Shown in pieces: positions 38,420 to 40,846 of a stretch of 40,846 nt of DNA (position 1 is the first letter of the stretch; each line of letters begins with the position of its first letter). This DNA is from Bacillota bacterium. GTDB taxonomy: Bacteria > Bacillota > Clostridia > Christensenellales > UBA1242. The position numbers were made by a program, and so were the translations under genes. A model generated the notes under the pieces. The model ran no database searches, had not been told where the DNA came from, and saw only the letters and a program-made list of their open reading frames with translations. Where the stretch lies: the NCBI GenBank assembly GCA_009787915.1, contig WQSK01000004.1, forward strand, positions 1 to 40,846. Direction: 5' to 3'.

Positions 38420-39346
38420 TTAATTGTACACCCTAAAAACAATCATTCTGTCGTTCTCTTTGTGTTTGACGAGTTTTGCGTTTATATCAAACGTACTTAA
38501 TAGCAGACTCTCATATTTCGCTTTGTCAGTAAACTTTATCTCGGTGTTTTTGAAATCCAAGTTTCTAGTTCGATAATAGCGTTTCTGATTAAGCCCAATG
38601 CTGTTCTCTTGCTTGGTCACATATCCAATAATGTAGTTGATTGCTTTCAACTGGTTTTCAATACTCTCTTGGTCGATTTTAACAACAGTTGAAAAACCTT
38701 TGTCCCAGAGTGGCAAATTATAAACTTGTCGACCACTTTGTAATACAGGTTCGCTTGTGTGTGGGTTGATTGCCACGACTAAAATATTTTCTAAGTCACA
38801 ATCCCCAAGTAAAGCATGAAAATGAATGTTGCCTTTGGCGTGGCGTTCAGGAACTGCAAGGATCTTAACAGTTGGAAATCTCTTTTGTAACTTTTGGCGG
38901 AACATTTGCCAGTAGTATTTTGTTGCTTTGTCATCATGGTCATGTTCGCTTTTCGCAATCGTAAAAGTACAAAAATAAACCCAGTCATTACACAAAGCAT
39001 ATCCATAAAAATTGTCTTTTGCTCTGCGACAACTCTCGTATTGACTGCGGTCAAATCCGTTGTCGATTTCCAAAATCTCGCCACGACTTGCGTATTCGTC
39101 AATTTGCTCTTGGTCTGTTATCTCTTTTCGTTTACTCGCTGAGATGATTTTGCCAGTTTCAGTATCTACCCAGTTATAATCTTTCTTACCAGTCAGGATA
39201 TCAAAAGGTTCGTGATAGTAAATGATTTCAGTAAAGAACTTAAACCGATTTATCCGAGTATTTACTTGCTCTCTCTTTTGTTTAGATAATAAATGTGCGT
39301 TAGGTTTCAAAACCCTCTCAACACGTTTTGACATGAACTTGTCCAT
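38420..39346 (-). CDS. HUH rolling-circle replication initiator (two-Tyr type)
   Basis: Motif I FCTFT, motif [22 protein letters not shown], motif [20 protein letters not shown] before ATG 39346. Confidence 0.85.
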
Positions 39347-39372
39347 GTGATTATCCACCTCTTTTAGAATTT

Positions 39373-39684
39373 TTAAGTGTTGCCAATATCAAGTATGACA
39401 ACCGCTTCGCTAGCAACCCCTTGCGGCGCACGTGGCGGAGACGGGCAAGCCTCGTCTCTCGCCACCACTGTGCGGTCGCAAGTGTGTTTGCACACTCTCG
39501 GCTCATTCGCTTTGCTCATTTGATAGCAATCGACTAGAAGGCTTGCCACTCGTTCCGCAAGACTTACTGCTACCTTTGTTGTGACTTCTGCATAAATCGG
39601 CACGCATGGCAAAAGCGACCTCGTAACTTTGTCACGAAGCCGATAACTGCCGATTTGTACTCGAATAGTTTTTTGCACAGCCAC
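39373..39684 (-). CDS. Small hypothetical protein, possible directionality factor or regulator; may be a disrupted gene
   Basis: Lies between rep and the recombinase; 3' half overlaps origin hairpins; an in-frame ATG at 39705 is cut off by TAA 39688-39690. Confidence 0.35.
   Translation of the reverse strand: MAVQKTIRVQIGSYRLRDKVTRSLLPCVPIYAEVTTKVAVSLAERVASLLVDCYQMSKANEPRVCKHTCDRTVVARDEACPSPPRAPQGVASEAVVILDIGNT
39376..39394 (-). other. Putative double-strand origin nick site
   Basis: Minus strand ACTTGATATTGGCAACACT versus phiX174 origin ACTTG^ATATTAATAACACT (16/19); contains the pC194/phiX core CTTGATA; 30 nt upstream of rep on the same strand. Confidence 0.75.
39420..39496. repeat. GC-rich stem-loops adjacent to the nick site
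   Basis: CTTGCG.CGCAC-GTGGCG-GAGACG-GGC-AA-GCC-CGTCTC-CGCCAC-GTGCG-CGCAAG, then AGTGTG-TTTG-CACACT. Confidence 0.8.
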
Positions 39685-39930
39685 CTCTTAAAGATTTGCT
39701 GTCATTTGTTTTTCTTTTGCCTTAACAGTAGGTCACGACAAAGGTCAAAAGTGAGGGGGTAAATCAAAAAAACTTTCCCTACATGGAGAACGCAAGAAGT
39801 ACCCATTTTGACTACTAGAATTTTAAAAAATCGTTTTTAATTTGTCCCATGACTTTACCTACACAAAACCAATACTTTACACAGCAAAAACCTAACTTTT
39901 CCCATCACTTGTGGTACAGTTGGTGTGCTC

Positions 39931-40053
39931 CCTTTTGGGCATAGCCGATGTTGGTAGCACAACACGCCCAAGACCGTCAAGGTAGTTTTCCCTTGGAACT
40001 TCCACCTTGACTGCCTTGGGCGGTTGTGCGGTTTGTCGGCTAAGCCCAAAAGG
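39931..40053. repeat. 123-nt imperfect hairpin (candidate single-strand origin or structured recombinase leader)
   Basis: CCTTTTGGGCATAGCCGA pairs with TCGGCTAAGCCCAAAAGG (17/18); inner GCACAAC/GTTGTGC, CGCCCAAG/CTTGGGCG, GTCAAGGT/ACCTTGAC. Confidence 0.85.
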
Positions 40054-40100
40054 CAGCCCTACGATCGGTTGCTTGTTAAGGGCAAAAAGGAGTGTGTAAA

Positions 40101-40846
40101 ATGAACAAAGCAGTAATCTACGCAAGGTACAGTTCCAACAACCAAACGGAACAGTCGATTGAAGGACAGGTTAAAGTCTGTGGGGAATTTGCCCAACGAC
40201 AAAATCTCGCCATTGTAGGCGAGTATGTTGATCGTGCTATGACGGGGACTAATGACAAACGTCCTGAATTTCAACGCATGATTTCGGACAGCAAACAAGA
40301 AATATTTGACGTGATTTTGGTGTATAAACTTGACCGATTTTCTAGGGACAAATATGAAAGTGTGGTTTATAAACGACAACTTAAAGAAGCAGGCGTTAAG
40401 GTCGTGTCGGCAACGGAAGCCATAGCGGACTCGCCAGAGGGCATTTTGTTAGAAAGTGTCATAGAGGGTTACAACCAGTTCTATTCAGTGGAACTCTCTC
40501 AGAAAATTAAACGTGGCAATCAAATCAATCTTGACAAGGGGAACTGGACTGGCGGAATTGTGACGTATGGGTACAAGGTTGTTGACAAGAAAATTCAAAT
40601 TGATAAACCCAAAGCCGAAATTATGAAAAAGATTTTTTCAGACTATGCAAGCGGAAAACCTAAGAAAGAGATTTGCAAAGAACTTAACGAAAAAGGTATA
40701 CGCAATAGAAGTGGCGAGCCTTGGAGTGTCACAAACATTTACCACAACTTGAAAAACAAAAACTACATCGGAATACTTGAACGTCATGGTGTTGAATACA
40801 CCAACATATACCCCAGGCTTATCGACGATAAACTTTTTGAAGAAGT
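40101..40846 (+). CDS. Large serine recombinase (partial, runs off right edge)
   Basis: My translation: MNKAVIYARYSSNNQTEQSIEGQ...RPEFQRMI...VYKLDRFSR...ELSQKIKRG...GGIVTYGY...LKNKNYIG; SD AAGGAG. Confidence 0.95.
   Translation, partial: MNKAVIYARYSSNNQTEQSIEGQVKVCGEFAQRQNLAIVGEYVDRAMTGTNDKRPEFQRMISDSKQEIFDVILVYKLDRFSRDKYESVVYKRQLKEAGVKVVSATEAIADSPEGILLESVIEGYNQFYSVELSQKIKRGNQINLDKGNWTGGIVTYGYKVVDKKIQIDKPKAEIMKKIFSDYASGKPKKEICKELNEKGIRNRSGEPWSVTNIYHNLKNKNYIGILERHGVEYTNIYPRLIDDKLFEE

Follow-up and report, generated by a model that had tools for sequence, protein, structure and literature searches.

A probable integrative rolling-circle replicon with a restriction-modification cargo at a tRNA-Ser gene of a Bacillota bacterium

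Introduction

Several described mobile elements resemble parts of the locus reported here. The Ralstonia phages phiRSM1 and phiRSM3 (Inoviridae) combine rolling-circle replication of the inovirus kind with a serine recombinase of their own, a small enzyme of the resolvase/invertase type, and according to the cited part of their description their attP matches 13 nt of a tRNA-Ser gene (PMC4471427); they are complete phages with coat and assembly genes. In Streptococcus, integrative mobilizable elements (IMEs) of the Rel_PHA00330, Rel_PF01719 and MobT groups are small and bring together an integrase, a HUH protein of the rolling-circle replication (RCR) type and cargo, many of them at the 3′ ends of tRNA genes. 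According to the cited sections of that survey, their RCR-type relaxases are always accompanied by tyrosine integrases and mostly by TcpA, whereas serine integrases go with canonical relaxases and enter protein-coding genes (PMC5357655). We describe here a locus in the window, by which we mean the whole stretch analysed, the 40,846 nt of contig WQSK01000004.1 (C4) of a Bacillota genome from the Christensenellales lineage UBA1242 (GCA_009787915.1, hereafter G000). Its sequence makes it probably an integrative rolling-circle replicon of about 7.3 kb, which encodes a replication initiator (Rep), a large serine recombinase (LSR) and a restriction-modification (R-M) system. Unlike the phiRSM phages, it has a 505-aa LSR with Recombinase and zinc-ribbon domains and carries R-M cargo, and Zot or coat genes were not found in it.

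Other systems are comparable in single modules. Rep and gpA of the microvirus phiX174 are both two-tyrosine HUH proteins (FxTxT, HFHA and YxxKYVxK-like motifs), the nick core ACTTGATA is identical, and the origins agree at 16 of 19 positions. However, gpA has 513 aa (3981 round to 136 of the 5386 positions of the record) and contains the origin inside its own gene, whereas Rep has 308 aa, its origin precedes the gene and occupies the loop of a hairpin whose stem covaries, and the element has no capsid genes. Plasmids of the pC194/pUB110 kind are likewise small replicons that carry exchangeable cassettes and have, besides their double-strand origin, a strand-specific single-strand origin at a separate place (a candidate one in our case). 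Their nick core is CTTGATA, for which a literature search turned up no plasmid paper but an unrelated one. These plasmids are non-integrative, and Rep matches family PF23343 with no match to their Rep_1 family. The element pSAM2, which replicates by rolling circle, and the Prochlorococcus tycheposons share with our locus the integration at tRNA genes and the combination of an integrase, a small replication module and cargo. They mostly use tyrosine recombinases, however, and carry primases, helicases or RepSA instead of PF23343 Reps, and pSAM2 is self-transmissible. Integration of pSAM2 at a tRNA gene is reported in the cited part of PMC2440964, and of 937 Prochlorococcus elements, tycheposons and cryptic ones taken together, 27 have a large serine recombinase according to the cited part of 10.1101/2020.12.28.424599. 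The parts of the element are thus all of known kinds, but for their combination, an LSR with a PF23343 Rep in an element at tRNA genes, we found no published description in a literature search that did not cover supplementary tables.

Results

Extent and insertion site of the element

Positions 33122-40846 of the window are identical over 7,725 bases to positions 71864-64140 (reverse) of another contig of the same genome, C1. The contig ends overlap and can be read as one locus, and positions beyond the window are given below as extended coordinates, in which the window numbering is continued along C1. This extension supplied the right end of the element, which the preliminary description of the window, made from its sequence alone, had expected beyond the contig. 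It falls at a tRNA-Ser(UGA) gene (extended 41606-41694), which is convergent with the LSR gene on the opposite strand; the LSR stop codon (41616-41618) lies inside the tRNA gene, with an overlap of 13 nt between the two. At the left end, the attL region (34259..34324) contains two direct copies of the LSR/tRNA junction sequence: TTGGAGGAGGGTAAGA at 34259-34274 is an exact match of extended 41605-41620 (16 nt), and TCGCTTGGAGGAG at 34312-34324 is an exact match of extended 41601-41613 (13 nt). The identity at the predicted LSR site is therefore 13-16 nt, and the element, bounded by window 34259-34324 and extended coordinate ~41620, measures 7.29-7.35 kb from the repeat copies to the LSR/tRNA junction.

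As shown by sequence analysis, the element is inserted at the 3′ end of tRNA-Ser(UGA). Integration is supported by the overlap of LSR and tRNA genes, by the repeats of the tRNA 3′ end at the far end of the element, by its lower G+C content (38.3%, compared to 42.5% and 42.9% in the flanks) and by the recurrence of the same module at two tRNA-Leu genes, described below. To the right of the tRNA gene are genes for an rRNA methylase, MntP, two NUDIX proteins, OGG, an M23 peptidase, UvrA and UvrB, and no phage structural gene was found by Pfam and PHROGs among the 22 open reading frames (ORFs) scanned beyond the recombinase. The left flank (window 1-33663) is made up of housekeeping genes, including those for GAPDH, PlsX, ScpAB, MurB, PFK, UvrC, TrmE, FtsH, IspH and IspG. 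The preliminary description had left room for phage structural genes after the recombinase; a tRNA gene and housekeeping genes stand there, and because structural genes are found on neither flank we rejected an ordinary prophage.

In the one public run that contains this DNA (X1, kept as contigs), a single low-depth contig (depth 5; shorter side 30 letters; 90% likeness) links the tRNA 3′ end to position 34300 through 33 other letters, which hints at an element-free variant. If it is one, the second repeat copy would be the present junction and the first an older remnant. Within extended 41695-41835, upstream of the intact tRNA gene, we observed 25-nt and 13-nt fragments of the tRNA-Ser 5′ end, together with an inverted 24/28 copy of TAAGAACCT..AGAACCTTG, whose original follows the left repeat (34270-34297); these are probably scars of earlier integrations. 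No usable empty tRNA-Ser site was recovered from relatives with the rRNA methylase, ispG, uvrA synteny and ftsH as anchors. Of 30 relatives, 4 gave a match to the rRNA-methylase gene adjoining the tRNA, and a search of 5 same-family genomes with the ispG query gave none. Gene order shared with the same-genus genome G001 stops just past uvrA, and ftsH of G001 is divided over contig ends.

Replication protein

Rep is encoded on the minus strand at 38420..39346. Its ORF spans 38420-39358, and the ATG at 39346, behind AAAGAGGTGG, is the likely start, in agreement with an identical 308-aa database protein. PF23343 (REP_ORF2-G2P) scores 49.1 bits on Rep against a cut-off of 27.8 and is the sole Pfam family on it at E <= 0.01, Rep_1 (PF01446) being unmatched; PHROGs assigns the protein to phrog_3419, 'rolling circle DNA replication initiation', and all 32 Rep homologues bear a precomputed PF23343 domain. 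The motifs FCTFT, HFHALL and NYIIGYVTK correspond to FDTLTL, HFHAV and YVAKYVNK of phiX174 gpA (translated from the fetched record), and the residues T131/T133, H179/H181 and Y242/Y246 are invariant in 28 aligned homologues. When the Rep family profile was compared with gpA by hhalign, 137 columns over all three motifs were aligned (probability 85.6%, E 5.5e-06, single comparison).

A structural model of Rep built from the alignment (pLDDT 89.9) gave 188 matches to predicted viral proteins at E <= 0.001, and the named ones were ORF2/G2P-domain proteins and microvirus replication initiators. Matches of the model to solved HUH domains were weak (E >= 0.02; 2x3g, 6q1m, 7lcc, 9pqf), and a sequence search found no relative of Rep with a solved structure. 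Sequence analysis shows Rep to belong, as an HUH initiator with two tyrosines, to the superfamily of inovirus gpII and microvirus gpA, and the HUH and YxxxY motifs that had been likened to gpA on first inspection are borne out by the alignment and by PF23343.

Viral relatives of Rep were found on 24 contigs, with 26-35% identity; within the family, 19 of the 100 other genomes have more distant Reps. Nine loci were fetched from these distant-Rep genomes; no LSR was detectable in them, and in five of the nine a tRNA gene lies 0.5-1.6 kb past Rep. The scan of genome contigs for Rep relatives, which used a profile of 17 closer sequences, yielded one locus (L033), in which Rep is followed by a tyrosine integrase and then by a tRNA cluster.

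Predicted double-strand origin

The sequence ACTTGATATTGGCAACACT at 39394-39376 (minus strand) lies 29 nt before the Rep ATG, on the same strand as Rep, and comparison with the phiX174 record showed the 16/19 identity to the phiX174 origin given in the preliminary description to be correct. At <=3 mismatches, a scan of the window returned this one site only, where 0.01 was expected, and a match was obtained in 1 of 100 shuffles. The minus strand at 39403-39375 reads GGTTGTCATACTTGATATTGGCAACACTT, and the phiX174 record reads CAACTTGATATTAATAACACT; the phiX174 origin is CAACTTG/ATATTAATAACACT, its annotated origin base 4306 being the A after CAACTTG. By analogy, Rep is predicted to nick the minus strand between G39390 and A39389.

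The site forms a hairpin (39379..39402, minus strand) with the stem GTTGTCA/TGGCAAC, which includes one G-T pair, and the loop TACTTGATAT. The letters AACACT beyond the nick core, singled out earlier as a further likeness, do resemble phiX174, but here they belong to the 3′ arm of the stem and the nick core is in the loop. Stems of the homologous origins covary (GTGTTGCC/GGCAACAC, GTGTCCCC/GGGGACAC, GGGATACCAT/ATGGTATCCC, GTTACC/GGTAAC) and the loop is kept, which points to a conserved unit consisting of the loop T-ACTTGATA-W on a variable stem. Because the nick motif occupies the loop of a covarying hairpin, the AACACT-like letters are mostly stem, and hairpin pairing is the better explanation for the likeness to phiX174 past the 8-nt core.

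A locus was scored as having this origin when a hairpin of at least 5 pairs with CTTGATA in its loop was present at most 350 nt upstream of Rep, and loci with at least 100 nt of upstream sequence were counted. Eight of nine close metagenome loci had it (the exception being L041), so the origin motif is conserved upstream of close Rep homologues, on which the first interpretation of the site had been made to depend. The one genome-collection relative, L033, had none (0/1); among loci from other same-family genomes the origin was present in 3 of 9, and among 23 viral contigs in one clear case (L014) and one doubtful case (L015). Overall, 14 of 43 loci carried it, with the window and the doubtful L015 counted, and two short loci outside the 43, L037 and L038, carry it as well. 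Folding also placed a G+C-rich hairpin just upstream of the origin hairpin (39432..39465, minus strand). G+C-rich hairpins occur at the equivalent position in L034, L037, L039 and L045, though not with conserved sequence, and a Rep-binding or origin-accessory structure is possible.

Large serine recombinase and its tRNA targets

The LSR gene is divergent from Rep, as the preliminary description had it. It starts at ATG 40101 on the plus strand, and the window contains the first 248 of its 505 codons (40101..40846), the remainder running to extended 41618. The 508-aa ORF matches Resolvase (PF00239, E 6.3e-27), Recombinase (PF07508, E 9.2e-19) and Zn_ribbon_recom (PF13408, E 7.9e-12), as well as the integrase group phrog_95 (E 2.6e-106). 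By eye, the N-terminus reads MNKAVIYARYSSNNQ, which we take to carry the catalytic-serine motif of LSRs.

The same arrangement of divergent LSR, structured spacer, origin hairpin and Rep was found in two metagenome loci, L043 and L045, whose Reps are 48-55% identical to that of the window. Their LSR genes overlap tRNA-Leu(AAG) and tRNA-Leu(CAA), respectively, by 13 nt each. Three further LSR genes are present in G000, on C29, C5 (frameshifted) and C26, and one in G001 on its contig C47, and these overlap convergent tRNA genes for Ser-GGA, Ala, Glu and Trp. Thus, all seven LSR genes examined (window with Ser-UGA, L043, L045, C29, C5, C26 and G001 C47) overlap a convergent tRNA gene, with pairwise LSR identities of 29-65%.

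Some of these genes belong to other elements of the genome. Positions 1-6257 of C29 (L078) form a second element, in which the LSR gene (4608-6248) runs into tRNA-Ser(GGA) and a 512-aa ORF stands in the place of Rep; PADLOC, Pfam and NCBIfam gave no name for the 512-aa protein. On C5 (~18700-22000) the frameshifted LSR gene that overlaps tRNA-Ala faces a Viral_Rep-like gene, and the LSR gene overlapping tRNA-Glu on C26 lies at ~5500-7200.

Structured spacer and the long hairpin R1

The preliminary description had noted hairpins flanking the origin, and the 701-nt spacer between Rep and LSR does fold far better than shuffled sequences. On the Rep-sense strand it reaches -138 kcal/mol (z -9.6), compared to -121.6 kcal/mol (z -4.9) on the other strand; this difference of ~16 kcal/mol in favour of the Rep-sense strand has the same direction in 6 of 7 loci. 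The spacer contains a long hairpin at 39930..40054 (minus strand), whose counterpart in L045 keeps the pairing through compensatory changes. From the window and L045 copies we built a covariance model, R1, which also detected the hairpin in L042 and L043 and at two further places in G000, on C9 and C29, making three loci in this genome with that of the window. Of the 101 family genomes scanned, two had the hairpin, namely G000 and the same-genus G001 (1 copy). When seven copies were compared, compensatory changes were seen at 12 of 23 pairs, while the boxes GCAC...GTGC and GTCAAG...CTTGAC did not vary. It is on the Rep-sense strand that the G-T pairs are found. Rfam models returned nothing at gathering thresholds on the whole window and one chance-level match on the spacer at E <= 5, and a promoter and terminator scan of the spacer did no better than on shuffles.

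The surroundings of the other copies differ. In C29, R1 lies 43 nt upstream of LSR and faces the 512-aa ORF without family match, and in G001 C47 it lies 31 nt upstream of LSR. On C9, the neighbours of R1 are the gene for a Viral_Rep-plus-helicase protein, a tyrosine integrase that is split, and R-M genes of the DpnII type. The element in question (L079, C9 4666-12987) has R1 downstream of its Rep, and its R-M system includes two methylases; a C5 methylase and a GHKL-ATPase gene are also present. No R1 copy was found in C7 or C56, two contigs of G000 with Zot-like genes, or in any of the 24 viral contigs.

Since the structure is strand-biased and is shared, within one host genus, by elements with otherwise unrelated replication and integration genes, we read R1 as a candidate single-strand origin, which would act on the Rep-sense (displaced) strand and be read by the host. 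Its distribution fits a host-specific, exchangeable cis element.

Cargo and neighbouring genes

To the left of Rep, all on the minus strand, the element carries an R-M pair and three further, uncharacterised genes. The HaeIII-type restriction endonuclease (36464..37420) is matched by PF09556 (E 1.8e-111) and PADLOC REase_II (E 1.6e-103), and its partner, a C5-cytosine DNA methyltransferase (37417..38394), by PF00145 (E 2e-101) and PADLOC MTase_II (E 5.4e-113). The methyltransferase probably starts at ATG 38394, as the longest ORF matches the Pfam family from residue 17 onward. Besides protecting the host, such an R-M system can stabilise the element that carries it. The earlier suggestion of a vehicle for defence genes is supported as to architecture, and as to defence cargo it is borne out for the HaeIII-type pair. 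In G000 as a whole, there are 1,201 copies of the HaeIII site GGCC, whereas mononucleotide composition predicts 2,479 (ratio 0.48), a rough figure in which dinucleotide bias is uncontrolled.

Of the other three genes, the one at 34983..35321 encodes a 112-aa STAS-like DUF4325 protein (PF14213, E 8.1e-07, 29.1 bits against a cut-off of 23). The 355-aa ORF at 35315..36382 matches phrog_3364 (E 3.3e-33), a PHROG without assigned function, and has no Pfam, PADLOC or NCBIfam match. Its look-alike clusters in the atlas carry HATPase_c in 13-18% of members and DUF4325 in 16%, which offers a lead toward a GHKL-ATPase-like partner of the DUF4325 protein. The 212-aa ORF at 34388..35026, weakly matched by phrog_674 (E 0.002) and by nothing in Pfam, PADLOC or NCBIfam, looked by eye like a membrane protein, with hydrophobic stretches.

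Outside the element, the adjoining ispH and ispG genes (window 31640-33663) may themselves be accessory. Between ftsH and ispH are two tandem HD_3 / YfbR-like phosphohydrolase genes in the 30300-31639 region and an unassigned 234-aa ORF (29556-30260). Farther away, an inverted self-match at 7991-8188 (83% over 206 nt), with related 112-nt copies on C15 and C93, represents a small repeat family.

Proposed mechanism and indications of activity

We propose that LSR would recombine an attP site overlapping its own 3′ end with the 3′ end of the tRNA gene, restoring the tRNA and allowing the element to leave as a circle, and that a directionality factor is probably needed for this excision. Rep would then nick the minus strand of the circle at the predicted position and become attached through one tyrosine; the nick would prime leading-strand synthesis, by which the Rep-sense strand would be displaced. 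On this displaced strand, where it is more stable, the R1 hairpin would serve as the single-strand origin at which host enzymes begin the complementary strand.

Activity was judged from assembled contigs of the sole public run containing this DNA (X1), possibly the source of the assembly, with one depth figure for each contig. Neither of the two signs put forward in the preliminary description, circle junctions and raised coverage, was seen in these contigs. No circular-type joint is listed among them, and depth is nearly flat, with 28.3 for the LSR-Rep piece, 24.8 for the right flank and 24.1 for the cargo and left flank. The missing circle is weak evidence, because contigs drop rare forms.

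Among the element ORFs of at least 100 aa, Pfam, PHROGs and PADLOC found no capsid, coat, Zot/assembly ATPase or coupling protein, just as the window had been described at first, and the packing of the genes leaves no space for Zot or coat genes. Having no capsid, assembly ATPase or coupling gene, the element must rely on a helper or on transformation for transfer from cell to cell. G000 holds candidate helpers of two kinds, the Zot-like loci on C7 and C56 and a VirB4-type locus on C42. On C7 (86-3701) and C56 (400-3541), a ~460-aa ORF is followed by a Zot-like ATPase and then by a Rep (Viral_Rep plus helicase on C7, Rep_OBD on C56), and these strings are possibly resident filamentous prophages. 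On C42 (78-7516), a 1,590-aa ORF is followed by an 887-aa protein with PrgI and a VirB4-type (TraG P-loop) ATPase, a hint of a conjugative element in the bin.

Discussion

Several observations weigh against an active integrative replicon. In addition to the flat depth and the lack of a circle joint in the X1 contigs, we identified no excision factor. Two repeat copies 53 nt apart leave the exact left end ambiguous, and no imperfect dyad of the kind familiar from LSR attP sites was seen by eye at the predicted junction. Direct repeats of at least 11 nt were not present at the four other LSR elements in the DNA examined, and the origin motif is absent upstream of most distant Rep relatives. Finally, the reading of R1 as a single-strand origin draws on its structure, strand bias and distribution, and in 4 of the 5 copies with an LSR on the contig (window, L045, C29 and G001 C47, not L043) R1 lies 31-47 nt upstream of the LSR start. 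Still, an integrative rolling-circle replicon is in our judgment probable, and four other explanations were compared with it.

First, the element may be an IME, with Rep acting as a relaxase at the same hairpin (oriT and origin being one) and the strand being transferred by a conjugative type IV secretion system (T4SS). We regard this as possible, although on balance unlikely. By the definition of Guedon and Coluzzi, an IME has an integration/excision module of its own with defined ends at a specific target, which this element possesses (LSR, tRNA-Ser and repeats), as well as a relaxase and an oriT that a helper conjugation system uses, for which Rep might serve as the relaxase. Moreover, 118 of 144 streptococcal IMEs have relaxases related to RCR initiators, including the PHA00330 class, some of them without a coupling protein, in the cited sections of the survey (PMC5357655). 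The metagenome-assembled genome also contains the 887-aa protein with PrgI and TraG P-loop domains, a VirB4-type ATPase that could belong to such a T4SS; its 8.9-kb contig C42, however, is uncertainly assigned to this genome. No coupling protein was found in the element by Pfam and PHROGs, and the sole FtsK-family match above cut-off was an 836-aa ORF on C47, taken as the chromosomal FtsK. Furthermore, the Firmicute precedent invoked in the preliminary description holds insofar as RCR-initiator-like relaxases exist in such elements, but in the cited sections these pair with tyrosine integrases, and the serine integrases enter protein-coding genes, unlike the LSR at tRNA-Ser (PMC5357655).

Second, R1 may have no part in replication and instead be a mobile palindrome of the REP/MITE kind, or else control the transcription of LSR and Rep as divergent genes, which we consider unlikely. 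Its closeness to the LSR start would allow it to act in LSR or Rep expression, and the invariant TTGAC in its 3′ arm resembles, in our own reading, a -35 box. Against a freely moving palindrome, the three loci in G000 and the one in G001 all lie within integrative elements, and no copy was found in 99 other family genomes. Against a protein-binding element, the stems of ~25 pairs, with 12 of 23 pairs covarying, favour pairing over protein half-sites. In the window and C9, R1 also scores better on the strand that is sense for the adjacent replication gene, and in C29 on the strand that is sense for the divergent 512-aa ORF. R1 may also be a packaging signal or an oriT.

Third, the element may be a phagemid-like satellite of a filamentous phage, made up of Rep, both origins and a packaging hairpin, and exported as single-stranded DNA (ssDNA) in the coats of a helper inovirus; this seems improbable to us. 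Viral relatives of Rep do include inovirus-like genomes, with Zot/pI-like ATPases in 3 of 7 typed contigs (L009, L020 and L024) and a weak one in L026, and in L014, one of the inovirus-like contigs, this origin hairpin precedes Rep by 41 nt. The spacer presents a long Rep-sense hairpin followed by the origin, a layout resembling the Ff intergenic region, and G000 has the two Zot-bearing loci on C7 and C56, beside Reps of other families. But R1, which would have to be the packaging hairpin, has no copy in C7, C56 or the 24 viral contigs and is common to elements with non-inovirus Reps, and to our knowledge filamentous-phage satellites (RS1, TLC) come solely from Vibrio, which we count against this explanation. 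Improbable to the same degree is a defence-carrying satellite of the filamentous phages of this genus, integrated by the LSR at tRNA genes, which would excise, replicate from the phiX174-like hairpin origin and leave the cell as ssDNA whenever a resident Zot-bearing inovirus is active; R1 would then be a packaging or complementary-strand signal by which several unrelated integrative elements of the genus exploit one helper.

Least probable of all, and very doubtful, is a decayed inovirus prophage, immobile and non-replicating, which lost its structural genes and received the R-M genes later: Rep is of inovirus type, phiRSM phages use a serine recombinase to enter tRNA-Ser over 13 nt in the cited part of their description (PMC4471427), and flat depth without a circle junction in X1 contigs would be expected of it, but the Rep and LSR frames are open over the available stretch, the Rep motifs are conserved, and other tRNA genes have the same compact LSR-hairpin-origin-Rep module with no structural genes in the visible parts.

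An integrative rolling-circle replicon, as preferred here, would mean that a replication module of the inovirus/microvirus type exists as a capsid-less integrative replicon with defence genes, in bacteria with genomes of ~1 Mb. The seven related LSR genes (7/7) that end in seven different tRNA genes extend tRNA-gene targeting to LSRs, and they suggest a lineage in which the choice of target has been re-aimed repeatedly, which is relevant to the use of serine integrases as genome-engineering tools. The hairpin shared within a single genus, in turn, points to a host-specific cis element that is exchanged among unrelated mobile elements.

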